Source of the DNA: Deltaproteobacteria bacterium
Lineage (GTDB): Bacteria > Desulfobacterota > Binatia > Binatales > Binataceae
Direction: 5' to 3'
Assembly: GCA_021799495.1 (NCBI GenBank)
Contig: JAJZAI010000002.1
Location: 84,968-148,967, forward strand
DNA: 64,000 nucleotides
This document shows, piece by piece, positions 14,072 to 60,794 of the stretch (positions are counted from its first letter, which is position 1; each line of letters opens with the position of its first letter). The position numbers and the translations under genes were made by a program. Below the pieces are notes generated by a model. The model made no database searches, was not told where the DNA came from, and saw only the letters and a program-made list of their open reading frames with translations.

Positions 14072-15286
14072 CTATCCTTCGCACATCCCGCCGGAGATTT
14101 TGGCGATCTCCGATGGTCCGTAGCCAAGTTCCCGCAGGACCGCCGCGGTGTCGGCGCCGATATCCGGCGCGGGCGAAGGCTGGCGCTTGGTCACGCCGTT
14201 AACGAAAACGGGGCTGTTGACCGTTTCGAGCGATCCGACTCCGGGATAGTTCAGCTTCACGATCGCGCCGGCCGCGCGCATCTGCGAATCCTGAACGACG
14301 TCGTCGAGCCGCGGCAACGGCGCCCATTTGATATCGTTGGCCTTGAAAATCATCCGCCACTCGCTCAGGTCGCGGGTTTCGAACTGCGCCTGTAAAATCG
14401 CGTAGAGCGCCCCGGCGTTTTCGGCGCGCGCCTGGTTGGTCGCGAACAGATCGTTCGTCGCGAGCTCGGGCTGGCCGAACGTATGGCAAAGCCGCGGAAA
14501 CTCGTTGTCCGGATCGATTTGCACCAGCAGGAACATTTTGGCGTCGCGGCTCAGATAGACGGCGGTCAGCGGGTTCGGCGGATGTTTGTCGGCGCCGCGC
14601 TGCGGAAAGACCGCATTCAGCAATTTCGCCTGAATATCGCAGGCGTTGGCCCACGCTCCGCTGGCCATCAGCGAGGTCGTCACCCGCGAGCCTTTGCCGC
14701 TTCGCTCGCGCCGGTACAGCCCCAGCATGATCGCGCCGAACAGGGACATCGAGGTCGGATGGTCGCCGATGCCGGGACGGGGCGAACCCGGCGATCCGTC
14801 GGCCCCGGCGACGCCGGTCATCAGGCCGGACCGCGCCCAGTAGGCCAGGGCGTCGAAGGCGGGATCGTCGGCGTCTTCCCCGGCGTCGCCGTAGCCGGTC
14901 AGATGGGCGTAAATAAGGCGATCGTTGACCGCCGACAGGTCGTCCCATCCCAACCGGAATTTATCCAGCAAGGTTCGCTGATAATTCGTGACGAACACGT
15001 CGGCGGTGCGGACCAGCCGAATCAGCGCGTCGCGGCCTTCAGGCCGGCCAAGGTCGATCGCCACGCTCTTTTTGTTGCGGCTGGTGAGCACCGAGCACCA
15101 ATCGAGTTCGGATTTGGCGCTGCCCGGCAATCTGGAAAAGAGCCGCCAGAGGTCGCCGCCGCCCGGCCGCTCGATCTTGATGACTTCCGCGCCGAAGTCG
15201 GACATCACGGTGGCTGCGGCGGGGCCGGCGACATAAGTTCCGCAATCGATCACGCGCAGTCCCGCAAACAAAGATTCTTCAGGCAT
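14072..15286 (-). CDS. CoA-transferase family III (CaiB/BaiF)
   Basis: N-terminal LRVIDCGTYVAGPAAATVMSDFGAEVIKIE signature, 404 aa. Confidence 0.9.
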   Translation of the reverse strand: MPEESLFAGLRVIDCGTYVAGPAAATVMSDFGAEVIKIERPGGGDLWRLFSRLPGSAKSELDWCSVLTSRNKKSVAIDLGRPEGRDALIRLVRTADVFVTNYQRTLLDKFRLGWDDLSAVNDRLIYAHLTGYGDAGEDADDPAFDALAYWARSGLMTGVAGADGSPGSPRPGIGDHPTSMSLFGAIMLGLYRRERSGKGSRVTTSLMASGAWANACDIQAKLLNAVFPQRGADKHPPNPLTAVYLSRDAKMFLLVQIDPDNEFPRLCHTFGQPELATNDLFATNQARAENAGALYAILQAQFETRDLSEWRMIFKANDIKWAPLPRLDDVVQDSQMRAAGAIVKLNYPGVGSLETVNSPVFVNGVTKRQPSPAPDIGADTAAVLRELGYGPSEIAKISGGMCEG

Positions 15287-28977: not shown

Positions 28978-29329
28978 TGCTTCTCCGTTAGAGCCGTATG
29001 GTTTGGAACGTCGCGGCTCCGCATCTTCATTCCAACCCGGATTCGCGTTTTGCGGGTTGACTATCAATTTGGCGAAGGGTCGTAAAGCCTTTGATGGATG
29101 CCGGTTTGGATGCGACGAGGCGTCGCGGAGCTGAAGCGGTGGAGGATGAGAAGCGCGAGAGGCCTTTCAGCTCTCGTTCAATGGCAGGTCAAGGGTCGAT
29201 TTCGAAGACGTGCGGATAACTTTCGAGCGCGGCCTGCCCGGCACAGTTTCTTTGCCAGACGATGGCCGCTGATGGTACTTACTGAATTAGCAGGCGCTTT
29301 CAAGACTGCGCGCGCAGGAGCCAACGACG

Positions 29330-30220
29330 ATGAGCGAGGACTACGTTCGATACATCGACCGGACACGCGAATATTACCTTGCCGAGGGCTACAAGACGCC
29401 GTACAAATGGGCCCATTTCGACGACATCCCGTTCGCGCGGCTCGAAAAGCCCCTCGCCCGATGCCGCGTCGGGCTGGTGACGACCAGCGATATCGCCGTC
29501 AGGACGGAGAGCGGCGCGCGCGAAAGCCACGATGCGGCGGCGTTGGTCGGCAACGTCTATTCGATTTCCGTCGATACTCCGATCGAGCGCCTTTACAGCC
29601 GCAACGAGCACTACGATCAGCACGCGACGACGCTGGACGATGTCAACGCTTATTGCCCGCTGACCCGGCTGCGCGAACTGGCCGATGCGGGGCGAATCGG
29701 CGCGCTCGCGCCGCGCTTTCACGGCGTTTACACCTCATACAGCCAGCGCATCACGCTGGAACGTGACGCGCCTGAGGTGCTCAAGCGCTGCCGCGAGGAC
29801 GAGGTCGACGTCGTCTTGCTCACACCGGTCTGACCGGTCTGCCACCAGACCGTGAGTCTGGTCGCACGCCATCTCGAGGCCAAGGGCATCCCAACCGTGG
29901 TTTTCGGCGCCGCCCGGGACATCGTCGAATATGCCGGCGTGCCCCGCTTCGTCTTCACCAACTTCCCGCTCGGCAGCACCTGCGGCAGGCCGTTCGACGC
30001 CGCGATGCAGCGCGAGATCGTCGAGGTTGGCCTGCGCCTGCTCGAAACCGCACAGGCGCCCGCGCCGACTGTGGTGACGCCGTACAAATGGAGCGACGAC
30101 GACAGTTGGAAGCGACTGATCTTTACCAAGGAGCAACCGTTCCTCGAGGGCGAAGCCTACGAGCACTGGATGCAGGCTAAGGAGAAGTATCGGCAGTTGA
30201 AGCAGTCAGGCAAGGCCTGA
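29330..30220 (+). CDS. candidate selenoprotein, GrdB/PrdB (glycine/sarcosine/betaine/proline reductase protein B) family-like; in-frame UGA at 29831-29833 read as Sec
   Basis: ORFs 29330..29833 and 29852..30220 are in the same frame separated by one TGA; joined product ...DVVLLTPV-U-PVCHQTVSLVARHLEAKGIPTVVFG... has a U-x-x-C redox motif; RBS AGGAG 9 nt upstream of ATG 29330; SECIS-like hairpin directly downstream of UGA. Confidence 0.65.
29834..29862 (+). promoter_or_regulatory. SECIS-like stem-loop immediately 3' of in-frame UGA
   Basis: cggtctg-ccac-cagaccg (29835-29852) and alternative accagac-cgtga-gtctggt (29844-29862); second hairpin starts 11 nt after UGA with a GU-containing apical loop, matching bacterial SECIS geometry. 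Confidence 0.5.
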
Positions 30221-30245
30221 GCGCCGCGCCTGTCCGGAGTCCGCA

Positions 30246-30479
30246 ATGCAGGACGTAATCGTATACTCGACCCCGCTGTGCGCGCCCTGCGAGCGGCTCA
30301 AGCGCCATCTGCGCGAGCGGGGCGTCGCTTTCAAGGTCGTGGACATCATGATGGACGAGGATGCGGGCGCCTTCCTCGAAAGCCGCGGCATCCGCAGCAC
30401 GCCGGTGCTCTCGGTCGATGGCGAGCTCGTGGTCGGTTTCGACCCGCAGCGCATCGATCAGCTCCTGAAGAAGCATTGA
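30246..30479 (+). CDS. glutaredoxin-like / NrdH-like thioredoxin-fold protein
   Basis: 77 aa, CAPC active site near N-terminus, MQDVIVYSTPLCAPCERLKRHL. Confidence 0.8.
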   Translation: MQDVIVYSTPLCAPCERLKRHLRERGVAFKVVDIMMDEDAGAFLESRGIRSTPVLSVDGELVVGFDPQRIDQLLKKH

Positions 30480-30783
30480 CGCGCGGGGTACTGTCTACTG
30501 TCGAGCGCCTGAGCCGCGCGCGGCGTTGGAGTAGACGGGCGATGGCGCGCCCGCCCTATCTCGACAAATCCGATCTGCCGGCGGAAAACCAGGTTCATAG
30601 CCGCATTCGCGCCGCATGAGCCAGATACAGCGGTATGCGGGTTCACGATCCGGTCAAGAACCGCGGTTTGGACTGGCCGTGCGCGCAGCCGGGGTTTCGG
30701 AGCCTGCTGGATTGTCTCGGGAACTTCGACGCGTTCAAATCCCATGAAGCCGGGCGCCGGCGGCAAGGAGACCAAAGTTAACG

Positions 30784-31017
30784 ATGACTGCTGGAGATAG
30801 TGGATCCGGCGCTGGCGCCGGGTCGAAACGCCAATTCAGACGCTTTATGTGCCTCGGCTGCGGCTTTCTCTACGACGAGGAACGCGGATGGCCGGAGGAG
30901 GGGATAGCGCCCGGCACGCGATGGGACGATATTCCGGCGGACTGGCGATGTCCGGATTGCGGAACCGCGAAGGCGCAGTTCGAGATGGTCGAAATCCCAT
31001 ACTATCGGGCGGCGTGA
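30784..31017 (+). CDS. rubredoxin
   Basis: [11 protein letters not shown]...W.DIP.DW.CPDCG classic two CxxCG knuckles; core may start at ATG 30847. Confidence 0.88.
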
Positions 31018-31031
31018 TACGGAGCGGCGTT

Positions 31032-31781
31032 ATGGCGGATTATTTCGTGCTGAGGGACGGCGAACGCGGCCACAGCCATCTGCCGTCCACGGGCAGCTTC
31101 GCCGAGTATGTGGCCGGCCATCCCGACGGATGGATCGATCGCGAATCAAGCTTCAATTTCCGTGAATATCAGAGCGGCCGGCCGGGCTTCGGCAAAATCC
31201 GCGTGTTTGGCGACGAGGTCTTCAGCGGCGCCGGCGCCGGCTACAACATGCACCCGCATCGCAACTTCATCATTATGGCGTTCGTGCTGCGCGGGGCGCT
31301 GACGCATATCAACACGATCGGAAAAATCGACGTGCTCAAGCCCGGCGATTATTACATCTTTTCGGCGGGTTCCGGTGGCAAGCATTCGGAATTGAATATC
31401 GAACCCGGCGAGATGAACGCGATCTACATCTGGGCGCTGCCGGGAAGATTGTTCGCGCCGCCGTCGTATCGCCGGGGAAATTTCGATTGCGGACGGCGCG
31501 CGAATGCGATCGCGGAGTTGATCGGCGACGCGCCCGGCGCCTTGCCGATCGATCAGGACCTCAAAGTCTCGCGCCTGTTCAGCGACGCCGTCGCCGACTA
31601 TGAATACAGGCCCGCGGACCGCAGCCACGGCGTCTATATTTTTGTGCTCGAAGGCGGTGCGCGCTTTGCCCAGGCTGAATTGCGCCGGCGCGACAGCCTC
31701 GGCGTCTGGAATTCCACCGCCGTCGAATTCGAAATCACTGCCGAGCGAAGCGATCTCCTGATCGTCGAGACGGCGCTCTGA
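31032..31781 (+). CDS. pirin family protein (bicupin)
   Basis: HPHRNFIIMAFVLRGALTHINTIGKIDVLKPGDYYIFSAGSGGKHSE matches pirin metal site; ORF-track N-terminal extension to 30849 overlaps rubredoxin and is rejected. Confidence 0.85.
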   Translation: MADYFVLRDGERGHSHLPSTGSFAEYVAGHPDGWIDRESSFNFREYQSGRPGFGKIRVFGDEVFSGAGAGYNMHPHRNFIIMAFVLRGALTHINTIGKIDVLKPGDYYIFSAGSGGKHSELNIEPGEMNAIYIWALPGRLFAPPSYRRGNFDCGRRANAIAELIGDAPGALPIDQDLKVSRLFSDAVADYEYRPADRSHGVYIFVLEGGARFAQAELRRRDSLGVWNSTAVEFEITAERSDLLIVETAL

Positions 31782-32079: not shown

Positions 32080-33090
32080 ATGACTGAAACCGAACATCGT
32101 ATCCAGAGCGAATATGAGACTCTCTATCAGCGGGAATACGCCGTGCTTGCGCCCGATATGCGGCGGCTCTACGAAAACGCCAAGCGCGACCAATGGAACG
32201 CGTCGCGCGATATCGATTGGTCGCAGCCGGTCGATCTGGACAAGGGAATTTTCGCCGACGGCCTGATCGACGGCTACGGCAGCGAGTTCTGGAACAAGCT
32301 CGACGAGAAGACCCGCCGCGAACTGAACGTCGAATTTTCCTGTTGGCGCATCTCGCAGCTTCTTCACGGCGAAGAGGGCGCGATGCTCGCCTGCAGCCAA
32401 CTGGTCGATATGGTGCCGACCAACGACGCCAAATTCTTCCAGTCGACCCAGGTGGTGGACGAAGCGCGGCATACCGAGGTGCTCAGCCGCTATCTCAACG
32501 AGAAGTGCGGCGGCCGCGTCTATCCGATGAACCACAACGTCAAGCATTTGTTCGATTACCTGCTCGGGCAGGGCAAATGGTTCATCAAAACGGCGGGCTT
32601 GCAACTGATTGCGGAGACCTTCGCGGTGGGACTGTTCCGGATGCTGGCGGAGACCGCGCAGGATCCCGTGCTGAAGTCGATCAGCAAGCGGATTTTGCTG
32701 GACGAATCGCGGCACATGGGCTTTTCGGTGATCGGCCTGCCCGACATGGTCGCGAACTTGTCGCCGGCGGAGATGAGCGAGCTTGAGGATTTCGTCGCGG
32801 AAGCGTGCCGGCTGGTGTTGCGCGGCCAGTTCCCGCGCGAAGCCTTCGAGAAGGTTGGCTTCAGCAAGAGCGAGATCGACCAGGTTCAGAAGATCCGAGT
32901 CGAAAGCGCCAAGAGCAACGATTACGCATTCTTCCGCCAGGTCTTCCGGCGCGAGATGTACACGCAGGTCGTTTCCAACATGAAGAAGGTTGGCCTGATG
33001 ACCCCGCGCACGGCGGAAAACTTGCGGAAGTTGGGAATCGATTCCACAATTGATGGACGAGCCGCCACTCTCGAATCGCCCGGCGCCTGA
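32080..33090 (+). CDS. ferritin-like di-iron carboxylate oxygenase (AurF/CmlI N-oxygenase-like)
   Basis: Two E...X(28-35)...DEXRH motifs (HGEEGAML...DEARH and AETFAVGLF...DESRH). Confidence 0.65.
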   Translation: MTETEHRIQSEYETLYQREYAVLAPDMRRLYENAKRDQWNASRDIDWSQPVDLDKGIFADGLIDGYGSEFWNKLDEKTRRELNVEFSCWRISQLLHGEEGAMLACSQLVDMVPTNDAKFFQSTQVVDEARHTEVLSRYLNEKCGGRVYPMNHNVKHLFDYLLGQGKWFIKTAGLQLIAETFAVGLFRMLAETAQDPVLKSISKRILLDESRHMGFSVIGLPDMVANLSPAEMSELEDFVAEACRLVLRGQFPREAFEKVGFSKSEIDQVQKIRVESAKSNDYAFFRQVFRREMYTQVVSNMKKVGLMTPRTAENLRKLGIDSTIDGRAATLESPGA

Positions 33091-33142: not shown

Positions 33143-33739
33143 ATGCCCGCGAGTTCTTCGCAAGTGACGCTGCGCGCGCCGCGGCAGGATAATCGCCGCG
33201 CCCAACTGCTCGACGCGGCGGCGCAACTATTCAGCGAGCGCGGCTTTCACGCCACGTCGATGCGGGATATCGCAAAGACGGTCGGGATGCTTTCGGGTTC
33301 GATTTATTATCACTTCGAATCCAAGGAAGAGATGCTTCTGGCCGTTTATGAAGAAGGTAAACGGCGGATCGCCGACGAGGTTGACGCGGCGGTGGCGAAC
33401 ACGACCGAGCCATGGATGCGGCTCGAAGCCGCATGCGCGGCGCATCTGCGCGCCTTGTTATCCCATCGCGATTATTCGCAGGCGATGATTCGCGCGCGTC
33501 CGCAAGAGGCCGGCGCTTTCGCGGGGCGGATTCGCGAACTTCGCCAGGATTACGAGATGCGGTTCCGGCGCTTAATCGAGGATTTGCCGCTACCGCCCGA
33601 AATCGATCGTCATTATCTTCGCTTGCTTTTGTTCGGCGCGCTAAACTGGTCGCAGGTCTGGTACCATTCAGGCGGCGATTCGCCGGAAATTGTAGCGCGC
33701 CATTTTGTTAGTATACTTCGCAGACCACTTCAGGCCTGA
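33143..33739 (+). CDS. TetR/AcrR family transcriptional regulator
   Basis: N-terminal HTH LLDAAAQLFSERGFHATSMRDIAKTVGMLSGSIYYHFESKEEML. Confidence 0.9.
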   Translation: MPASSSQVTLRAPRQDNRRAQLLDAAAQLFSERGFHATSMRDIAKTVGMLSGSIYYHFESKEEMLLAVYEEGKRRIADEVDAAVANTTEPWMRLEAACAAHLRALLSHRDYSQAMIRARPQEAGAFAGRIRELRQDYEMRFRRLIEDLPLPPEIDRHYLRLLLFGALNWSQVWYHSGGDSPEIVARHFVSILRRPLQA

Positions 33740-37292: not shown

Positions 37293-37598
37293 CTATGCCG
37301 CGCGTAATTTGACGCGGCGGGGGCCGAAGGTCGCGACAATTTCTAACTCGCCGCCCAACGCTGCGACATAGCGTTGTAGAGTGGAGAGACGGTAATCCGA
37401 ACGGCTTTCAAGGCGCGAGATTTCCGATTGCGCTTTCTTAAGCGCTTCCGCCAGCTCTTCCTGCGTTTTGCCGGCCGCCTCGCGCAGCTCCCGCAAGTCC
37501 ATTTCGAGCAGTTCATCCGCAACGGCGCGATCGATTTCCTTTAATTCTTCCGGCGAAAACTTGCGCGCCCGGATTTCACGCCACGGCTTCGTCTTCAT
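37293..37598 (-). CDS. higA: HigA-like antitoxin, XRE-family HTH (addiction module antidote protein)
   Basis: LRELREAAGKTQEELAEALKKAQSEISRLE HTH and C-terminal LSTLQRYVAALGGELEIV typical of antidote family; 4-nt overlap with upstream toxin gene. Confidence 0.8.
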   Translation of the reverse strand: MKTKPWREIRARKFSPEELKEIDRAVADELLEMDLRELREAAGKTQEELAEALKKAQSEISRLESRSDYRLSTLQRYVAALGGELEIVATFGPRRVKLRAA

Positions 37599-37954
37599 TT
37601 CTCACGCTCCCCTTTTTGCAAATAATTCAAATAGTCATTCCAAATCCGCTCGGCGCGCGGAATGAACGTTTCGTAAAACCTGTTGTCGCCCGTCTTATCG
37701 CCGCCGATGAGCAACACCGCCCGCCGAATCGGATCGAATGCGTAAAATACCCGCAACGGACGCCCGGCGGATTGAATCCTGAGCTCGCGCAGCGCCCGCG
37801 ATCCTTTAATTTCGCTGCTATAGGGAAAACCGAGGGCCACGCCCCTTTCCTCAAGCAGGCCGATTACGCGCGAAACCGCATCGGAATCTCTTTTGGCAAG
37901 CTCCAGAAACCAAATTTCAAATTCCTCGGTACCTTCAATCTCAACCATCGCCAC
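37595..37954 (-). CDS. higB: HigB-like toxin of RelE/ParE superfamily (addiction module killer protein type)
   Basis: ALRELRIQSAGRPLRVFYAFDPIRRAVLLIGGDKTGDNRFYETFIPRAERIWNDYL matches the killer-protein family pattern ELRI..G..YRV.Y......ILLL.GGDK; toxin-first order typical of higBA. Confidence 0.78.
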   Translation of the reverse strand: MAMVEIEGTEEFEIWFLELAKRDSDAVSRVIGLLEERGVALGFPYSSEIKGSRALRELRIQSAGRPLRVFYAFDPIRRAVLLIGGDKTGDNRFYETFIPRAERIWNDYLNYLQKGEREK

Positions 37955-39274: not shown

Positions 39275-40489
39275 GTGAGGATGGCGAAGGCAGCGCTGGA
39301 CGATCTGAAAGTCGTCGAATACGCCGAGATGGTTTCGGGGCCGATGTGCGGCAAGATGTTCGCCGACCTTGGCGCCGAGGTGATCAAGATTGAGCCGCCG
39401 GGATGCGGCGACGAAGCGCGGCGCCATCCGCCGTACCCCGGCGACGAACCGCATCCGGAAAAAAGCGCCTTTTTCGGCTACCTGAACACGGGCAAGAAGA
39501 GCGTCACGCTGGATCCGGCGACGGCGAGCGGCGCGGAGATTTTCCGCAAGCTCGTCGCGGACGCCGACGTGCTGATCGAGAACTATCCGGTCGGCCATCT
39601 GGCGCGGCTCGGGCTTGGCTACGACGCGCTGAGCGCGATCAATCCGAAGCTGGTGATGGCCTCGATTTCGCCGTTCGGGCAGACCGGGCCGTATCGCGAC
39701 TGGCAGGGCACGGACCTGATCGCGTGGGCGATGAGCCTCACGGGCTACAACACGCCCACGCTGGTGGATGACGGCGAGCGGGAAAATCCGTTGCGCGCGC
39801 CGGGCCATCCGGCGGAAATGATGGGCGCGGCGAACGCGGCGGCGGCGGCGATGGTCGCGCTGGCAGCGCGCGACGCCACCGGACGCGGCCAGTGGATCGA
39901 CGCGCCGTGCTGGCAGGCGACGGCGAACACGGCGAAGCTGGAGATGGCGGCGTACTCATACGTGGGGATTCCATTCAGCCGCCTGCGCGCGAACGTCCAA
40001 GTGGGGCTGGAACCGCTGCCGTGCCGCGACGGCTATATCTACACGCTGTGGGCGGCCGAGGCGCATTGGCGGGCGCTCAAGCAGTTGCTGGGAAATCCGC
40101 CGGAGCTGGACAACGAGATTTTCGACGATCTCGCCGGCCGGCACGAAAACGACGATATCCTGCGCACGCTGATTCGCGGAGAATTGGCCAAGCACGACAT
40201 GGATTATCTGGTGACGGAGGGGCAGCGGCTGGGGCTGACGATCGGCCCGGTGCATACGGTGGAGCAGGCCGCCAACCATCCGCATCTCGCGGCGCGCGAG
40301 GCGTTCGTCGATATCGCTCATCCGATGGCGGGAACGATCCGGATGCCGCGGACGCTGGTGCGGATGACGGCGACGCCACCCGAATCGCGGCGGGCGCCGA
40401 TGCTGGGGGAGCATAACGGCGAGATTTTCGCGCGGCTCGGAATCGAGGCCGGGGCGCAGGCGGGATTGCGCGCGGCGGGCGTGATTTAG
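39275..40489 (+). CDS. CoA-transferase family III (CaiB/BaiF)
   Basis: LKVVEYAEMVSGPMCGKMFADLGAEVIKIEPP signature. Confidence 0.9.
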   Translation: MRMAKAALDDLKVVEYAEMVSGPMCGKMFADLGAEVIKIEPPGCGDEARRHPPYPGDEPHPEKSAFFGYLNTGKKSVTLDPATASGAEIFRKLVADADVLIENYPVGHLARLGLGYDALSAINPKLVMASISPFGQTGPYRDWQGTDLIAWAMSLTGYNTPTLVDDGERENPLRAPGHPAEMMGAANAAAAAMVALAARDATGRGQWIDAPCWQATANTAKLEMAAYSYVGIPFSRLRANVQVGLEPLPCRDGYIYTLWAAEAHWRALKQLLGNPPELDNEIFDDLAGRHENDDILRTLIRGELAKHDMDYLVTEGQRLGLTIGPVHTVEQAANHPHLAAREAFVDIAHPMAGTIRMPRTLVRMTATPPESRRAPMLGEHNGEIFARLGIEAGAQAGLRAAGVI

Positions 40490-40518: not shown

Positions 40519-41739
40519 ATGGGACGGCTGCCGCTGGAAGGACTGAGGGTCGCGGACTTCAGCTGGATTATAAACGGGCCGCAAATCGCGCAGTGGTTCG
40601 CGACGATGGGCGCCGAGGTAATCAAGATCGAGTCGCAGACCTATATCGATATCGGGCGGACCAATCCGGCCGGGATGGCGGATCGGAAGCCGGGGATGAA
40701 CCGGAGCGGTTTTTATCACGCGCTGAATTACGGCAAGAAGGCGATCAATCTCAACCTGAAGCATCCGAAGGGGCGCGAGCTGGCGCACGAGATAATCCGG
40801 CGCAGCGATTTCGTGCTGGAATGTTTTCCGCGCGCGACAGCGGAAGGGCTCGGCCTCACGTACGACGCGATGCGCAAGGTGAAGCCGGACATAATCATGA
40901 TTTCGGTTTCGCTGCTGGGAAAATCCGGGCTCGATCCGTCGCGATGGGTGGGATGGGGGCCGATGGCGTGCGCTTTCGTCGGGCTGTTCGACGCGCAGGG
41001 CTATGCGGGCGGGCCGCCGCGCCAGACCGGAGGCACGTGGCCGGACTACGCGGTCGCATCGACGGTGGTGTTCCACGCGCTCGCGGCGCTCAGGCATCGC
41101 AACCGCACCGGCGAGGGGCAGTGGATCGATGCGAGCATGGGCGAGACGGTGATCGGGCAGATGCACGAATGGTTCACCGACTATTTCATGAACGGGCGCG
41201 ATCGGCGGCAGTGGGAGAATCGCGACGACGTGATGGCGCCGCACAACACCTATCCATGTCTCGGCGAGGACAAGTGGATCGCGATCGCGGTCGGCGACGA
41301 CGAGCAGTGGGCGGCGCTCCGCGGCGCGATGGGCGATCCGGAGTGGGCGCGCGATGCGAAGTTCGCCGATCAATACGGCCGCTGGAAGAACCGCGATGCG
41401 ATCGACGCGCGGCTGCGCGAGTTCACGCGCACGCGCGACCATCTGCAACTCGCGGCGGAGCTGCAAAAGGCGGGCGTTCCGGCCGGTCCGGTGCTCGACA
41501 GCGTCGAGCTGCATCAGGACCCGCATCTGTGGGAATGGGGCTACTGGTGGAAGATGGACCATCACGAAGTCGGCGAACGGATTCTGCCGGGGATGCCGGT
41601 GAAGCTGAGCGCCGACGAGAAACTCAACTATTCGTATCCGCCGGACCTGGGACAGCATAACCGCGAAATCTTCGGCGGGCTGCTGGGACTGTCGGACGCG
41701 GAGATCAAAATCCTGATGGAGGAAAAGGTCATCTACTGA
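40519..41739 (+). CDS. CoA-transferase family III (CaiB/BaiF)
   Basis: LRVADFSWIINGPQIAQWFATMGAEVIKIE signature; second paralog in tandem. Confidence 0.9.
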   Translation: MGRLPLEGLRVADFSWIINGPQIAQWFATMGAEVIKIESQTYIDIGRTNPAGMADRKPGMNRSGFYHALNYGKKAINLNLKHPKGRELAHEIIRRSDFVLECFPRATAEGLGLTYDAMRKVKPDIIMISVSLLGKSGLDPSRWVGWGPMACAFVGLFDAQGYAGGPPRQTGGTWPDYAVASTVVFHALAALRHRNRTGEGQWIDASMGETVIGQMHEWFTDYFMNGRDRRQWENRDDVMAPHNTYPCLGEDKWIAIAVGDDEQWAALRGAMGDPEWARDAKFADQYGRWKNRDAIDARLREFTRTRDHLQLAAELQKAGVPAGPVLDSVELHQDPHLWEWGYWWKMDHHEVGERILPGMPVKLSADEKLNYSYPPDLGQHNREIFGGLLGLSDAEIKILMEEKVIY

Positions 41740-42923
41740 TGGACACGCTCAAGGACAAGGCTTGCATCGTGGGCGTGGGCGAAAGCGCCTTCACGCGCGG
41801 ATCGGGCAAGACCGAACTGAGGCTGATGCTGGAGGCGTCGCTCGCGGCGATCGGCGACGCGGGATTGAAGCCGCACGATATCGACGGCATCGTCGGGCCG
41901 CCGATCGGATCGGTGGCGGAGCATTTCGCGGCGAATCTCGGAATCGAGGATTTGCGCTTCGCGACGACGGTACACATGGGCGGCGCGAGTCCGGTGGTGT
42001 CGCTGCAGGCGGCGGCGATGGCGGTGGCGAGCGGAATCGCGACGAACGTCCTGATTCCGCTGGGCTGGAACGGCTATTCGTCGAACCCCGTGCGGGGCGG
42101 CGGCGCACGCGCCGAGACCGGCGAAAAGCCGATGCCTGAACCGAATCCGATGATGAACACGATCGGCGCGTTCTATCTGCCGTACGGCGCGACCGTGCCG
42201 GTCCAGTGGTACGCGTGGCTGGCGACCCGCCACAAGCATCTGTACGGCACGCCGTTCGAGACGATGGGGGCGATCGCGGTGAACGGCCGCGCCAACGCGC
42301 ATCTGAACGAAAAGGCGATGATGCGCGGCCGGCCGCTGACGATGGACGACTATCTCGCGGCGCGATGGGTGTCGTATCCGTTCCGGCTGTACGATTGCTG
42401 TCTCGAAACCGATGCGGCCTGCGCGGTGGTGGTGACGTCGGCGGAGCAGGCGCGCGATTTGAAGCATCCGCCGGTCTATATTTCCGGCGTCGCCGAGGGC
42501 CATCCGTATCCCGCCGACGACATTCCGGCGCGTCCCGATCCGTTCGTGATCGGGCTGAGCTTCGCCGCGCCCAAGGCGTTCGCGATGGCGGGCGTGACGC
42601 ACAAGGACGTCGATTTCCTTGAGGTGTACGACTGCTTCACTTACGTCGTGATGCTGCAGATCGAGGCGATGGGTTTCTGCAAACGCGGCGAAATCAAGGA
42701 TTTCATCACGCCCGAGCTCATCCGGCTCGGCGGCGAGCTGCCGCTCAACACGCACGGTGGCCTGCTGTCCGAGGCGCACGTGTGGGGCATGAACCATATC
42801 GTCGAAGCGGCGCGCCAGTTGCGCCGGCAGTGCGGTCCGCGCCAGGTCAAGGACGCGGAAATCGGGCTGGTGACGGGATGGGGCGATTTCGGCGACGGCG
42901 GGCTGGCGATTCTGAGGAGATAG
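41739..42923 (+). CDS. thiolase-like protein (SCP-x / lipid-transfer-protein type)
   Basis: ACIVGVGESAFTRGSG N-terminal thiolase motif, C-terminal NTHGGLLSEAHVWGMN; start overlaps preceding stop. Confidence 0.88.
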   Translation: MDTLKDKACIVGVGESAFTRGSGKTELRLMLEASLAAIGDAGLKPHDIDGIVGPPIGSVAEHFAANLGIEDLRFATTVHMGGASPVVSLQAAAMAVASGIATNVLIPLGWNGYSSNPVRGGGARAETGEKPMPEPNPMMNTIGAFYLPYGATVPVQWYAWLATRHKHLYGTPFETMGAIAVNGRANAHLNEKAMMRGRPLTMDDYLAARWVSYPFRLYDCCLETDAACAVVVTSAEQARDLKHPPVYISGVAEGHPYPADDIPARPDPFVIGLSFAAPKAFAMAGVTHKDVDFLEVYDCFTYVVMLQIEAMGFCKRGEIKDFITPELIRLGGELPLNTHGGLLSEAHVWGMNHIVEAARQLRRQCGPRQVKDAEIGLVTGWGDFGDGGLAILRR

Positions 42924-42929
42924 GGCGCG

Positions 42930-43346
42930 ATGGCCGACAAAATGTACAAATTGCCGACGCCGCGAGTCGGCGGATATTCGGCGGAATTCTACAAGTTCTG
43001 CAAGGATCACGAACTGCGCTTTCAGCGTTGCACTGGATGCGGCGCGTGGCGCCATATTCCGCGCGACATGTGCGCGAAGTGCGGATCGTTCGAGTTCGAA
43101 TGGGCGCGCTCGAAGGGCCGCGGCAAGGTGTTTTCGTGGACAACGGCGCACCAGCCGATGATGGCCCAGTTCGCCGCGCACATTCCGTACAGCCCGGTGA
43201 TCGTCGAGCTGGACGAAGGCGTCAGGATGGTGACGTGGCTGACCGGCGTGAAGCCGGAAGAACTGGAGCTAGCGATGCCGGTCGAGGTGGTTTTCGACGA
43301 CGTGACGCCCGACGTGTCGTTGCCTAAATTCCGGCGCGCGGCGTGA
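42930..43346 (+). CDS. Zn-ribbon OB-fold protein (DUF35 family)
   Basis: CTGCGAWRHIPRDMCAKCGS rubredoxin-like zinc ribbon followed by OB fold; obligate partner arrangement with SCP-x thiolases. Confidence 0.88.
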   Translation: MADKMYKLPTPRVGGYSAEFYKFCKDHELRFQRCTGCGAWRHIPRDMCAKCGSFEFEWARSKGRGKVFSWTTAHQPMMAQFAAHIPYSPVIVELDEGVRMVTWLTGVKPEELELAMPVEVVFDDVTPDVSLPKFRRAA

Positions 43347-50520: not shown

Positions 50521-51366
50521 ATGATGCGGAAGCTGATTCTACTGACAGTTGCGGGACTTGCGGGCGCGCTGTTCATCGCGTGCCAAAAGCAGTCTCAGGC
50601 GACATTCGACACCCGAACCGCGAGCGATTTTTTCCCGCTTCCGCCCAAAGCCGTCTGGACGTACAAGGTTGACAGCAAAAGCCAGCATACGACCTACGTC
50701 GTTACGGATACGGTGGTGGGGCAGAAATATGTTCCGGCGCTAAACGTGACCGGAATGGTGGTCGAGGAATATTACAACCTCGATCGCGGCGGCGTGCGGC
50801 CGATCGTTTATACCAGCCACAACGGCTATCTCGATCGCCTGTCCGGACTGGCCTATCAAAAGCAGGATATCGAGGCGCCGGCGTGGGGCCGTTCCGAAGA
50901 GGGCGAATTCATGCCGCAACTGCTTGCGCCAAATCTGAACTGGAAGAGCAAGATTTATCCTTTCGGCCACATCTCAGGGGCCTTCGATATCAATCAAACC
51001 CATCACACCTATTTTGAGCCCGAAGCGATCGCGGTGCCGGCGGGAAGTTTCCTCGGTTGCGTCCGCATCGATACCGACGCGAGATATGAGGGCGGCACCT
51101 ATGCGCAGAAGGGCAACAAGAATCTGAAATTGATGTATCGCGACTGGTACGCGCCGCATGTCGGATTGATCAAGACGATCGCGCTGGAAGGCGGGCCGGG
51201 CGGCTCGGAGATGGAGCACGTGGAATTGCTGCGCTACTCGATTCCACCCGCGGCGGGCGGCGCATCCGGCGCGGCGGACAATCCAGGAGCGCCGAGCGTT
51301 GGCAATTCCGCCGCTGATGCGCCACAATCCGCGAAATCGCCCGCGGTCGCGGCCAAAACCAACTAA
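50521..51366 (+). CDS. hypothetical lipoprotein, paralog A
   Basis: Lipobox LFIAC; shares long collinear blocks with paralog B (VWTYKVDSKSQHTTYVVTDTVVGQKYVPAL / WYAPHVGLIKT). Confidence 0.7.
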   Translation: MMRKLILLTVAGLAGALFIACQKQSQATFDTRTASDFFPLPPKAVWTYKVDSKSQHTTYVVTDTVVGQKYVPALNVTGMVVEEYYNLDRGGVRPIVYTSHNGYLDRLSGLAYQKQDIEAPAWGRSEEGEFMPQLLAPNLNWKSKIYPFGHISGAFDINQTHHTYFEPEAIAVPAGSFLGCVRIDTDARYEGGTYAQKGNKNLKLMYRDWYAPHVGLIKTIALEGGPGGSEMEHVELLRYSIPPAAGGASGAADNPGAPSVGNSAADAPQSAKSPAVAAKTN

Positions 51367-51492: not shown

Positions 51493-52320
51493 ATGCGCGA
51501 TTGGTTTGCGGCGGCCGGTCTGGCCGCGCTCGTGACCATTGCGGCGGCATGCAGCAGGCCTGCGCCCGCCAAAATCGATCTCCGCGCCAACTTCTTTCCG
51601 CTCAAGACCAACATGGTCTGGACCTACCGGATAGACAGCAAGAGCCAGCACACCTCCTATGTCATCACCGACCGCGTGGTTGGAAGCCAATACGTGCCCG
51701 CACTCAAATTGACCGGGTTGGTGGTTGCGGAGTTTTACAATCTGGATCGCGCCGGCCTGCGCCCGATCGTCTATGTCGATGATTCCGGATATCTGACGCG
51801 ATTGTCGGGCCTGGATTACGACAATCATCGCATCGTCACGCCCGCATGGGGAAAGTCGGAAGAAGACGATTTCCTGCCGGCGCATCTGGCGCCCAATCTG
51901 GCCTGGAACAACGAGCTCTTTCCGTACGGTAAACTTCCAGGCGGATTCGAGATCGTGCAGCGCCACAAGAGTTTCGGCGAACCGTCCGCGATTGCCGTGC
52001 CGGCGGGCCATTTCGCCGGATGTATTCGGATTGAAACGCGGGCGCGCTATCAGGGCGGCGCGTACGCCGAATCGAAACAGCAACTCAAACTGACCTACGA
52101 AGATTGGTACGCGCCGAATGTCGGCCTAATCAAAACGGTCGCGTATCAGGGCGGTCCCAATGGCCCGGAGATGGAGCGGGTCGAATTGATGAGATTCGAC
52201 GTCGCGTCCAAACCAAACCAGCTCTCGCCAGCTCAAGGAATCCGGCCGGCGGCGAACCGGCCGCAGGCGAGCGAAGGAGCTTCAGCGCGCAAGGCGCGAA
52301 AGCGGGCGATCGCCGGATAA
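51493..52320 (+). CDS. hypothetical lipoprotein, paralog B
   Basis: Lipobox IAAAC; roughly 50-60 % identical to paralog A by eye over the full length. Confidence 0.7.
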   Translation: MRDWFAAAGLAALVTIAAACSRPAPAKIDLRANFFPLKTNMVWTYRIDSKSQHTSYVITDRVVGSQYVPALKLTGLVVAEFYNLDRAGLRPIVYVDDSGYLTRLSGLDYDNHRIVTPAWGKSEEDDFLPAHLAPNLAWNNELFPYGKLPGGFEIVQRHKSFGEPSAIAVPAGHFAGCIRIETRARYQGGAYAESKQQLKLTYEDWYAPNVGLIKTVAYQGGPNGPEMERVELMRFDVASKPNQLSPAQGIRPAANRPQASEGASARKARKRAIAG

Positions 52321-57944: not shown

Positions 57945-60794
57945 ATGAGCAATTCAGTAAGTCCGCTCAAGCAATTGGGGCAATTCGGTCAGAGCGTTTG
58001 GCTCGACTACATCCGCCGCCACCTGCTCGTTTCGGATGAATTTCGCAAGCTGATCGAAGATGACGGAGTCGACGGGATGACGTCGAATCCGACGATTTTC
58101 GAAAAGGCGATCGCCGGCTCCAACGACTACGACGAGGAATTGACCGAGCTGGCCCGCGCGGGCAAAAGCGTGGACGAGATCTACGAAGCGCTTTCGACCG
58201 CCGATATCAGGATGGCGGCGGATCGGCTGCGGCCGATCTGGGAGCGCAGCAATGGGCGCACCGGCTACGTCAGCTATGAAGTTTCTCCGCTGCTGGCGCA
58301 TGACACCGACGGCACGATCGAGGCGGCGCGGCGCTATTTCAAGCTGATCGATCGGCCCAACCTGATGATCAAGGTTCCGTCCACGCCGGCCGGAATTCCA
58401 GCGATCGAAAAGCTGATCGCCGAGGGGCGGTGCATCAACGTGACCCTGATGTTCTCGCTCGAGCATTACGAGAACGTCGCGAATGCGTATATCCGCGGTC
58501 TTGAAGCGCGGGCGCGCGCGGGCCAGCCGCTGGATAAAATCGCCTCGGTGGCGAGCGTGTTCGTGAGCCGGGTCGAAACGTTGGTCGATAAACGGATCGA
58601 CGAGAAGCTCAAGGCGAATCCGGACGAAGCGATCGCGGCGATGCGCGGCACGTCGGCTGTCGCAAACGTGAAGATTATCTACCAGCGCTTCAAAGAACTG
58701 TTCGGCGGAGCGGAGTTCAAGGCCCTTGCCGCGCGCGGCGCGCATGTGCAGCGTCCGCTCTGGGCTTCGACGGGAACCAAGGATCCGAAATACAGCGATA
58801 TCAAGTACGTGCAGGAATTGATCGGCCCGGATACGGTGAACACGATGCCGCCGGCGACGATGGACGCGTATCGCGATCATGGCGCGCCGCGCGCCACGCT
58901 GGAAGACGGCGCCGCCGAGGCGAAGGAAACGGCCGAGCGGTTCCGCGGCATCGGAATCGATCTGTACGAAGTCGGGGAAGTGCTGCAGCGCGAGGGCGTG
59001 GACGCGTTCGTCAAGTCGTTCGACGATTTGCTGGCGGTGATCAAGAAGCGGTGCGACGCGATTCTGTCGGGAGCCCACGATCGGCAGCGGATCGCCGCGC
59101 CGGCGGCGGAGAAAGAGATCGCGGCGGCTTGCGCGCGCCTCGATGCCGAGGACTTTCCCTCGCGGTTGTGGCGGAAGGATCCGACGCTCTGGAAAAAAGA
59201 ACCCGCGCATCAGGAGATAATCCGCAACGCGCTCGGATGGCTGACCGTGCCGGAAACGATGGCCGAGCAGGCGGGCGCGTTGCGCGATTTTGCGGACGGC
59301 GTGCGCAAGGAGCGTTACCAGGACGTTGTGCTGCTTGGCATGGGCGGTTCGAGCCTTTGTCCCGAGACGCTGGCGAAGACCTTTTACAGCGCGCCGGGTT
59401 TTCCGCGGATGCACGTGCTCGATTCCACCGTGCCCGACCAGATTCGCTCGATCGAGCGGCGGATCGACATCATGTCAACGCTGTTCGTGGTCTCGTCGAA
59501 ATCGGGCGGCACGGTGGAGACGATGTCGCACTGCGCCTATTTCTTCGAGCAGGCGGCGGCGCGGCGCGGAAACGCGGCGGGACGCAGCTTCGTCGCGATT
59601 ACAGACGCCGGCACGAGTCTCGAAAAACTGGCGCGCGAGCGCGGTTTCCGCCGCATCTTTTTAAATCCGCCGGATATCGGCGGCCGCTATTCGGCGCTTT
59701 CGTATTTCGGACTGGTTCCGGCCGCGCTGATGGGAATCGACGCCGGCGCGCTGGTCGACCGGGGAATCCGGATGACGCACAGTTCGGCGGCGTGCGTGAA
59801 GGCGCGCGACAACGCGGGCGTCAGTCTGGGCGCGGCGCTGGGCGTGCTGTGCAAACAGGGCCGCGACAAACTGACGCTGATCGTCTCGCCGTCGATCGCG
59901 ACGTTCGGCCTGTGGCTGGAGCAGCTTGTCGCCGAAAGCACGGGCAAGGACGGCTTGGGAATAGTGCCGGTTTGCGACGAGCCGGCAGGCGCGCCGGAGG
60001 TTTACGGCGGCGACCGGATGTTCGTCTATCTGCGGCTCGAAAACGGCGCCGATCCGGTGCAGGACGCGGCGGTCGCGGCGCTGGAAAAGGCGGGCCAGCC
60101 GCTGATCCGCGTTTCGATCGAGGACAAGCTCGATTTGGGCGAGGAGTTCATGCGCTGGGAGATCGCGACGGCGACCGCGGGCGCGCTGCTCGGGATCGAC
60201 GCATTCGATCAGCCCAACGTGCAGGAGAGCAAGGACAATACGAACCGGCTGCTCAAGGAGTTCGCGGCGCGCGACAGATTCGCCGAAGAACATCCGGCGG
60301 CGGAGCACGGGATCGTTTCGCTTTTCTGTCCGGATGGCGTGCGCGCGAAGCTGGGCGGCGCGGGCGATTTCGAAGCGCTGCTCAAGGCGTTCCTCGGCCT
60401 CGCGCGGCCGGGAGACTATTTCGCGACGATGGCCTATGTCGCGGCGGATCCGCTGGTTGAGCGCGAGATCGCGCGAATCCGGACGCTGGTGCGCAACCGG
60501 CTTAAAATCGCGACGACCTTCGGCTACGGGCCGCGTTTTCTGCATTCGACCGGGCAGCTTCACAAGGGCGGGCCGAATACGGGATTGTTCCTGCAAATTA
60601 CGCAGGACCATTCGGACAATCCGATGATTCCCAACGCGCCGTATGGGTTCGCGACGCTCAACGAGGCGCAGCATCGGGGCGATTACGAATCGCTCGAGCG
60701 GCACGGCCGGCGCGTCTTGCGGGCGCATCTGCATGGCGACGTGGCGAGCGCGATGGGCGTGCTGCGCGGGGCCATCGCCGAAGCGCTCGGATGA
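57945..60794 (+). CDS. bifunctional transaldolase / glucose-6-phosphate isomerase
   Basis: N-terminal 370 aa transaldolase (MTSNPTIF, Schiff-base K in MIKVPST); C-terminal PGI (VLLGMGGSSL, SKSGGTVET). Confidence 0.9.
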   Translation: MSNSVSPLKQLGQFGQSVWLDYIRRHLLVSDEFRKLIEDDGVDGMTSNPTIFEKAIAGSNDYDEELTELARAGKSVDEIYEALSTADIRMAADRLRPIWERSNGRTGYVSYEVSPLLAHDTDGTIEAARRYFKLIDRPNLMIKVPSTPAGIPAIEKLIAEGRCINVTLMFSLEHYENVANAYIRGLEARARAGQPLDKIASVASVFVSRVETLVDKRIDEKLKANPDEAIAAMRGTSAVANVKIIYQRFKELFGGAEFKALAARGAHVQRPLWASTGTKDPKYSDIKYVQELIGPDTVNTMPPATMDAYRDHGAPRATLEDGAAEAKETAERFRGIGIDLYEVGEVLQREGVDAFVKSFDDLLAVIKKRCDAILSGAHDRQRIAAPAAEKEIAAACARLDAEDFPSRLWRKDPTLWKKEPAHQEIIRNALGWLTVPETMAEQAGALRDFADGVRKERYQDVVLLGMGGSSLCPETLAKTFYSAPGFPRMHVLDSTVPDQIRSIERRIDIMSTLFVVSSKSGGTVETMSHCAYFFEQAAARRGNAAGRSFVAITDAGTSLEKLARERGFRRIFLNPPDIGGRYSALSYFGLVPAALMGIDAGALVDRGIRMTHSSAACVKARDNAGVSLGAALGVLCKQGRDKLTLIVSPSIATFGLWLEQLVAESTGKDGLGIVPVCDEPAGAPEVYGGDRMFVYLRLENGADPVQDAAVAALEKAGQPLIRVSIEDKLDLGEEFMRWEIATATAGALLGIDAFDQPNVQESKDNTNRLLKEFAARDRFAEEHPAAEHGIVSLFCPDGVRAKLGGAGDFEALLKAFLGLARPGDYFATMAYVAADPLVEREIARIRTLVRNRLKIATTFGYGPRFLHSTGQLHKGGPNTGLFLQITQDHSDNPMIPNAPYGFATLNEAQHRGDYESLERHGRRVLRAHLHGDVASAMGVLRGAIAEALG

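Follow-up and report, generated by a model that had tools for sequence, protein, structure and literature searches.

We describe a gene, at positions 29330-30220 of a 64,000-nucleotide stretch of a Deltaproteobacteria bacterium of the Binataceae (contig JAJZAI010000002.1, positions 84,968 to 148,967 of the forward strand; hereafter the window), that is very probably a single gene in which an in-frame UGA is decoded as selenocysteine (Sec). The predicted product belongs to an orphan PrdB-like family, that is, a family related to the B subunit of D-proline reductase whose loci lack the partners of that enzyme. Comparative sequence evidence strongly supports the selenoprotein reading of 29330-30220, and a gene for a small redoxin lies directly downstream. 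The elements of the locus on which the argument depends are the following.

29316..29320, plus strand: Shine-Dalgarno-like AGGAG, 9 nt 5' of the ATG of the selenoprotein gene (sequence reading)
29330..30220, plus strand: predicted coding sequence of the PrdB/GrdB family (PF07355), 296 codons, with Sec codon 168 and a U-P-V-C motif (frame, profile matches, homologues and the ratio of nonsynonymous to synonymous substitution rates, dN/dS)
29831..29833, plus strand: in-frame UGA, predicted Sec residue U168 (conservation, Cys column, alignment with Sec151 of true PrdB)
29840-29842, plus strand: codon of the putative resolving Cys171 (U-P-V-C motif)
29844..29862, plus strand: hairpin of the Sec insertion sequence (SECIS) type, ACCAGAC 29844-50, loop CGUGA 29851-55, GUCUGGU 29856-62 (RNAalifold, covariation)
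30246..30479, plus strand: glutaredoxin-like (NrdH/YruB-type) protein of 77 aa with CAPC at 30279-30290 (PF00462, TIGR02196)

An earlier reading of the letters alone (the sequence-only reading) had held that two listed open reading frames (ORFs), 29330-29833 and 29852-30220, are one frame split by a TGA and that their joined product carries a Sec-x-x-Cys arrangement. The DNA is as it described. The two ORFs share a frame whose sole interruption is the TGA at 29831-29833 and which ends at the TGA at 30218-30220; the joined product (167 aa, U and 128 aa, 296 aa in all) contains U-P-V-C and reads ...EDEVDVVLLTPV-U-PVCHQTVSLVARHLEAKGIPTVVFG... around Sec, with the upstream context EVDVVLLTPV. TGA is the usual stop codon in the window, where it ends 26 of the 44 genes of at least 150 aa, and because it is a normal stop codon of this organism any decoding of the UGA at 29831 must be site-specific. 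A window-wide scan for TGA codons flanked on both sides by coding-type composition gave 29831 as the sole non-boundary case, the two other matches both being ordinary gene boundaries. A promoter and terminator scan of 29050-30900 was uninformative.

The UGA is retained at the same codon across many phyla. Relatives that do not have Cys at this position carry TGA there in 99 of 99 cases examined. In a species set composed of one genome per GTDB species, which contains 21 loci at 43-91% identity plus the window (22 in all), TGA is present in 22/22 and is followed by PVCHQT in all 21 relatives. The metagenome-assembled genomes (MAGs) that hold these 21 loci are labelled Deltaproteobacteria, Rhodospirillaceae, Alphaproteobacteria, Myxococcales, Anaerolineaceae, Gammaproteobacteria, Pseudohongiella, Spirochaetaceae and Thermodesulfobacteriota. 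Metagenome loci have TGA in 77 of 78 cases and TGC in the remaining one. The identical TGA occurs in ten independent assemblies of the species to which the window belongs, and a sequencing error is thereby ruled out. Two loci, L012 and L015, are paralogues in one MAG (YP4.bin102, JAKAVN01), and both have the TGA and the hairpin; a downstream redoxin gene is present only at L012.

The sequence-only reading implied that U should fall in a column of Cys or Sec residues, and it does: the Sec column is an invariant Cys in full-length homologues (PV-C-PVCHQT), which include proteins of Bordetella, Bradyrhizobium and Roseomonas and about 75 others, and it is the annotated Sec151 in bona fide PrdB. 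A stop codon kept at one position across phyla and aligned to Cys or Sec is the signature of Sec and not of decay. The region 3' of the UGA also evolves as coding sequence. In 20 of the 22 species the open frame extends for another 124-141 codons, and dN/dS, estimated by the Nei-Gojobori method from 30 pairs, is 0.150 upstream of the UGA and 0.135 downstream of it (128 codons). Given this equal purifying selection on either side, we infer that both halves are translated in this frame. The downstream ORF is shorter in L017 (10502 onward, CAVWXK010000001.1; 69 codons) and in L025 (109 codons), probably owing to a frameshift or assembly error in these MAGs or to a decaying copy.

These observations bear directly on the alternative that the UGA is a real stop, in which case the region would be a pseudogene or two genes (167 aa, and 122 aa from a GTG at 29852) and the hairpin would have another purpose, such as coupling or attenuation. 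We consider this very improbable, although every gene caller annotates the region in this way and Sec machinery is not seen in the window or within 10 kb of either side. A start at GTG 29852, which has neither a Shine-Dalgarno sequence nor a comparable motif 5' of it, would drop the six codons PVCHQT, the family's best-conserved stretch, in which the invariant Cys171 lies. The preserved frame and length, the dN/dS of 0.135 and the retention of TGA opposite Cys or Sec all argue against a stop as well.

Immediately after the UGA the RNA had been proposed to fold in two ways, the preferred one being accagac-cguga-gucuggu. Both hairpins can be drawn in the window; of the two, only the preferred one is conserved elsewhere. 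RNAalifold applied to the 22 species predicts exactly one helix, the hairpin at 29844-29862, which has a 7-bp stem whose first nucleotide is the 11th after the UGA and an apical loop containing G and U. Every helix cell is paired (154/154, 100%), and the stem carries just two substitutions, each of them compensated (L016, C-G to U-A; L027, G-C to A-U). Across 96 distinct Sec-form sequences, 95.4% of cells are paired and double changes affect 3 of the 7 pairs, 13 cells in all (nine C-G to U-A, two G-C to A-U and two C-G to G-C), a level of pairing and compensation that was matched by 0 of 500 shuffles and by no slid register. Synonymous sites within the hairpin are frozen: codon entropy is 0-0.27 bits at codons 172-177 (HQTVSL) versus about 1-2.3 in flanking conserved codons, and Ser176 is encoded by the rare codon AGT in 21/21 sequences from genomes of 54-70% G+C. 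Cys forms encode the same peptide as ACC-ATC/GTC-AGC-CTG, and their hairpin region folds at -4.3 or 0 kcal/mol versus -9.1 for Sec forms. The other proposed hairpin, cggucug-ccac-cagaccg (29835-41 / 29846-52), was rejected because pair 15-30 is broken in 14 of the 22 species, and the lower helix of the window's minimum free energy fold was rejected because it is absent from the 22-species consensus, which holds the 7-bp hairpin only.

A stem that starts at the 11th nucleotide and a loop with G and U are the geometry expected from the minimal SECIS of E. coli fdhF and from the bSECISearch consensus. The window hairpin resembles the fdhF-type SECIS in these respects and in lying inside the ORF, and differs from it in its 7-bp stem, its 5-nt CGUGA loop and its lack of a bulged U and of a conserved lower helix. 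The locus combines three of the features on which comparative selenoproteomics relies, namely a UGA kept alongside Cys homologues, a conserved SECIS hairpin and coding evolution 3' of the UGA.

The joined protein was compared with profiles after C had been substituted for U. Its residues 35-255 align to the NCBIfam PrdB model TIGR04483 (E = 1.2e-33, 116.5 bits; equivalog cut-off 300), and this single match runs across the UGA, showing that the two halves are one family, as had been supposed. The Pfam model GRDB (PF07355) gives 33.6 bits versus a gathering score of 22, with model positions 200-345 of 347 aligned to residues 19-165, so that the match stops two residues 5' of U. The GrdB/GrdF/GrdH models score 44-53 bits versus cut-offs of 602-800; TIGR01917 and TIGR01918 give 46.4 bits, under their cut-offs of 602 and 65.45, and the joined protein has 296 aa versus about 430 aa for a full-length member. 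The sequence-only reading had proposed a GrdB-family selenoenzyme. That proposal holds insofar as the protein is a relative of PrdB and GrdB that passes PF07355, and fails insofar as it lies below the curated cut-offs of both enzymes.

A search of 5.8 billion proteins returned about 75 full-length relatives of 291-313 aa and 45-66% identity. The closest relatives (75-100% identity), one of which, at 81% identity, is labelled Candidatus Binataceae, are each called as a protein of ~167 aa that stops at the Sec codon. In a profile search of 1.84 billion cluster representatives (50% identity), many stop at profile position 164-165 and many others start at 168 or 173. Homologues of 293-294 aa are colinear with the joined protein. 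The name given to the family by the Prokaryotic Genome Annotation Pipeline is 'glycine/sarcosine/betaine reductase selenoprotein B family protein'. Approximately 30 further residues are invariant in the orphan family, including Y8, Y16, Y25, W27, D96, T100, D104, R180, E183, D197, E200, R206, PLG 213-215, Q227, W254 and W260. An AlphaFold2 model of a Cys form that is 66% identical (P0001; 77-sequence alignment; mean predicted local distance difference test score, pLDDT, 88.7; predicted template modeling score, pTM, 0.88) is an alpha/beta protein in which a beta-strand precedes a helix whose N-terminus holds the C/U position, and its fold is not thioredoxin-like. A sequence search of the PDB found no relative.

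We compared the family with true PrdB, using annotated prdB genes found by tblastn against plasmids. Codon 151 is an in-frame TGA in the prdB genes of both Peptoclostridium acidaminophilum and Ligilactobacillus salivarius, and in a joint alignment the U168 column is the PrdB Sec151 column (TPV-U-PVCHQ versus TAG-U-GTCHR). The window protein and PrdB have in common U-x-x-C-H, R180, E183, GIPT, P213-x-G215, G219-x-P221 and Q227; with PrdB as defined by TIGR04483 and known from C. sticklandii and C. difficile, the likeness consists of homology over residues 35-255 and a SECIS within the coding region. The differences are considerable. Identity to true PrdB is 27-30%, the orphan family has an N-terminal addition of ~30 residues, many of them invariant Tyr and Trp, and a C-terminal one of ~45 residues, it has TSYSQR where PrdB has a GGGGD loop, and its Cys forms are common and its partner is a glutaredoxin-like protein. 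Compared with GrdB, GrdF and GrdH, with which it shares the C-terminal part of the PF07355 model and the UxxC motif, the window protein lacks the N-terminal ~200 residues. Also missing is the third Cys of GrdB's UxxCxxC (motif per PMC13188914).

The gene neighborhoods of the two families differ as well. Canonical prd loci have the order prdA-(prdH-like)-prdB-prdD-prdE-racemase, whereas the window locus has no PrdA, PrdH, PrdD, PrdE, PrdC or PrdF nearby, and tblastn with PrdA, PrdH-like, PrdD, PrdE and racemase queries found no match in the window or in ~115 orphan-family loci. As a positive control, the same search found PrdA immediately upstream of true prdB. No GrdA, GrdC or GrdE occurs among the Pfam-annotated neighbors, for which no direct tblastn was run, and together with the absence of PrdA, PrdD and PrdE this agrees with the non-Stickland context that had been noted from the sequence.

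These comparisons weigh on a second alternative, that the window gene encodes the B subunit of a genuine D-proline or glycine/sarcosine/betaine reductase whose partners are encoded elsewhere in the genome. PrdB is the best NCBIfam match, relatives are publicly annotated as 'D-proline reductase (dithiol) PrdB', and the family is filed under proline reductase in selenoproteome papers (PMC1088965, PMC2398784). We nonetheless judge this alternative highly unlikely given a score of 116.5 bits against a 300-bit cut-off, the low identity to true PrdB, the extra conserved terminal segments and replaced GGGGD loop, and the absence of PrdA, PrdD and PrdE from ~115 loci in a search with a positive control. 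In proline reductase, the PrdA pyruvoyl group binds D-proline, whose C-alpha is then attacked by Sec151, and PrdB U151C is inactive (PMC11229817), yet natural Cys forms are common in the orphan family; aerobes (Bordetella, Bradyrhizobium) are, moreover, among its hosts. Scoring under the curated cut-offs and lacking partner subunits, the window gene is best regarded as a homologue that keeps the predicted catalytic dyad of PrdB, and not as a member of the PrdB or GrdB enzymes. The relatives are best described as a separate, widespread orphan clade that appears to have no pyruvoyl partner.

In place of reductase subunits, the recurrent companion of the orphan family is a redoxin gene. The CxxC thioredoxin-fold protein noted downstream from the sequence is confirmed as a glutaredoxin-fold gene with CAPC at 30246-30479, with a gap of 25 nt and not 26. 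Its product scores 52.3 bits with PF00462 (cut-off 22.9), 71.2 versus 88.55 with the YruB model TIGR02196, its best match in NCBIfam, and 54.7 versus 85.75 with TIGR02194. It is like NrdH and YruB redoxins in being small (77 aa) with a glutaredoxin fold and an N-terminal CxxC, and unlike them in falling below the curated cut-off, in its CAPC motif and in being linked to a PrdB-like gene instead of to ribonucleotide reductase. A redoxin gene lies directly 3' in 35 of 54 loci of the window's clade (Sec and Cys forms), defined as loci with the window-type C-terminal extension, versus 1 of 36 in the sister clade. In Bordetella bronchiseptica the two genes overlap, with the redoxin gene starting at the stop of the Cys form. 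In two metagenome loci (L055:2835-3053 and L061:954-1172) the first Cys of the redoxin is itself a TGA codon (F-U-G-P-C), followed about 27 nt later by a CCUGC-GGUC(N)-GCAGG hairpin; each of these loci is a predicted two-selenoprotein operon. The redoxin at 30246-30479 is therefore likely the dedicated reductant of the PrdB-like selenoprotein.

A different kind of association is found in the sister clade. Cluster representatives P0139, P0140 and P0142 have an AMP-binding (PF00501/PF13193) enzyme fused to a complete PrdB-like domain in its Cys form (PNCPVCHQ), and both the linker and the fusion are conserved between P0140 and P0142, which are 58% identical.

We propose the following mechanism for the locus. 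The UGA at 29831 would be recoded to Sec by SelB and tRNA-Sec, recruited via the hairpin at 29844-29862, to give a 296-aa Rossmann-like alpha/beta protein whose core is homologous to PrdB and to the C-terminal part of GrdB. Sec168 and Cys171, which occupy the position of the catalytic Sec151-x-x-Cys of PrdB, would then act together: Sec168 would be the nucleophile, and after turnover it would be trapped in a Se-S bond with Cys171, as in PrdB. This bond would be reduced by the co-transcribed NrdH/YruB-like redoxin through its CAPC motif, and the redoxin would in turn be re-reduced by thioredoxin reductase or glutathione. We think it probable that the redoxin reduces the Se-S bond in such a relay. 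A weak hint that the substrate may be an activated carboxylic acid comes from the adenylate-forming enzymes fused to sister-clade proteins.

A third alternative accepts a genuine selenoprotein that serves, together with the redoxin, purely in an antioxidant relay, as a thiol/selenol-disulfide oxidoreductase or a peroxidase, and that performs no small-molecule chemistry of the PrdB type. Such a role would suit the UxxC motif and a redoxin partner with CxxC, the free interchange of Sec and Cys is typical of redox proteins, and the family has been classed among thiol-dependent redox proteins (PMC1088965). However, ~30 invariant residues beyond the dyad are more than a redox motif requires, some of them are common to catalytic PrdB, the fold is not thioredoxin-like, and the sister clade is fused to adenylate-forming enzymes. 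Given these conserved polar and aromatic residues and the fusions to adenylating enzymes, a small-molecule substrate is more likely than a pure antioxidant role, and we regard the latter as unlikely. We place at roughly 55% the probability of a further-reaching reading, in which the orphan protein and the redoxin form a self-contained, pyruvoyl-independent selenoenzyme system that carries out a novel reductive reaction in aerobic and facultative bacteria, possibly on an activated carboxylic acid, and for whose clade the label 'proline reductase' is wrong.

Several results count against the proposed Sec-decoded gene and its redoxin partner. Neither selA, selB, selD nor tRNA-Sec is found in the 64-kb window, in 10 kb on either side or in about 115 related loci: tblastn with E. 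coli SelA, SelB and SelD (approximate query sequences) matched only the GTPase domain of BipA, scans of the window and 22 loci gave no tRNA-Sec, and the 10 kb past each window end contains housekeeping genes only. Sec insertion at U168 is a prediction from sequence. The hairpin has no Rfam match (gathering thresholds over the whole window, permissive thresholds over 29780-29920), its stem is short, and the fold z-score computed from the window only is modest (-1.74). The redoxin gene is absent at 19 of the 54 loci of the clade, and apart from it no neighbor recurs across the closest relatives, which makes the substrate a guess.

The family has been known since 2005. 'Proline reductase PrdB, pfam07355, UxxC' was the third most abundant selenoprotein family in the Sargasso Sea, with 42 genes (PMC1088965; Zhang, Fomenko & Gladyshev 2005), and the same marine 'PrdB' family has 235 Sec and 110 Cys forms in the Global Ocean Sampling (GOS) data (PMC2398784; Zhang & Gladyshev 2008). 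A 'proline reductase' is also listed among the selenoproteins of the non-Stickland genera Anaeromyxobacter and Geobacter (PMC1794560), probably the same family, as matched by label and not by sequence. Current reviews still place the family under D-proline reductase (PMC9312934, PMC13188914). The window gene appears to belong to this marine family, a placement made from its published description and not from the original sequences: pfam07355, UxxC, Sec and Cys forms and aerobic or environmental hosts are common to both. The window's host, by contrast, represents a soil/sediment-type lineage, and the marine papers gave no SECIS covariation, no split from true PrdB and no partner. No paper found in our literature searches sets the orphan PrdB-like clade apart, describes a redoxin partner for it or examines its function. 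The window gene is very probably a genuine, mis-called selenoprotein gene of a family known since 2005, whose proline reductase label is probably mistaken.

For the window itself the result is an ordinary one, since it adds one more family member. The wider consequences concern annotation and function. Gene callers cut the family at the Sec codon nearly everywhere, so that protein catalogues hold thousands of half-proteins, and the nearly invariant 19-nt hairpin offers a simple rule for mending split gene calls. The family is among the most abundant selenoproteins of aerobic ocean metagenomes, yet it is filed under an anaerobic Stickland enzyme. With no linkage to PrdA, an operonic redoxin that is sometimes a selenoprotein, and Cys forms in the tractable Bordetella bronchiseptica, its function becomes testable.

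The remaining neighbors of the selenoprotein gene in the window include the rubredoxin, pirin and di-iron oxygenase that the sequence-only reading had named, all three of which are borne out by annotation of identical contigs:

30847-31017: rubredoxin (Pfam annotation, identical contigs)
31032-31781: pirin (Pfam annotation, identical contigs)
32080-33090: AurF-type di-iron oxygenase (Pfam annotation, identical contigs)
33143-33739: TetR (Pfam annotation, identical contigs)

A 367-nt gap separates the redoxin gene from the rubredoxin gene, and other neighbors are a divergent enoyl-CoA hydratase (ECH) gene and a luciferase-like monooxygenase gene. None of the rubredoxin, pirin, AurF and TetR genes is conserved beside the selenoprotein gene in other species. 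A rubredoxin gene also follows yruB at the C. pasteurianum locus (TIGR02196), as in the window. Family III CoA-transferase genes, found no more than 2.5 kb away at 12 of 103 loci, were considered as a possible enrichment and rejected, given that they already make up ~5% of the genes of the window, where there are three in 64 kb:

14072-15286: family III CoA-transferase
39275-40489: family III CoA-transferase
40519-41739: family III CoA-transferase

Also present in the window are several enoyl-CoA hydratase genes and, at 41739-43346, a thiolase-like gene together with one for DUF35. This unusual wealth of CoA-ester metabolism in the genome weakens any neighborhood argument.

Two Cys-form loci have distinctive surroundings. 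On the 421-kb plasmid p546-2 of Roseomonas haemaphysalidis (L038:4965-7350), the Cys form stands tail-to-tail with a gene for SelO, a protein adenylyltransferase; this is a single case. In Bordetella bronchiseptica (L032/L033:3681-6918), the Cys-form, glutaredoxin and CoA-transferase genes adjoin a TctC-family gene, which stands between this cluster and the divergent pertussis-toxin (ptx)/type IV secretion operon.

Elsewhere in the window, tandem paralogous genes at 50521-51366 and 51493-52320 encode closely similar lipoprotein-like proteins of about 280 aa with no Pfam match, and a protein similar to this pair is encoded near the selenoprotein gene in L012. A single ORF of 949 aa at 57945-60794 combines transaldolase (PF00923) and glucose-6-phosphate isomerase (PF00342) and is flanked by transketolase and 6-phosphogluconolactonase genes. 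Finally, a HigB/Gp49-like toxin (PF05973) and an HTH_3 antitoxin are encoded on the minus strand at about 37293-37948, among genes of acyl-CoA metabolism.

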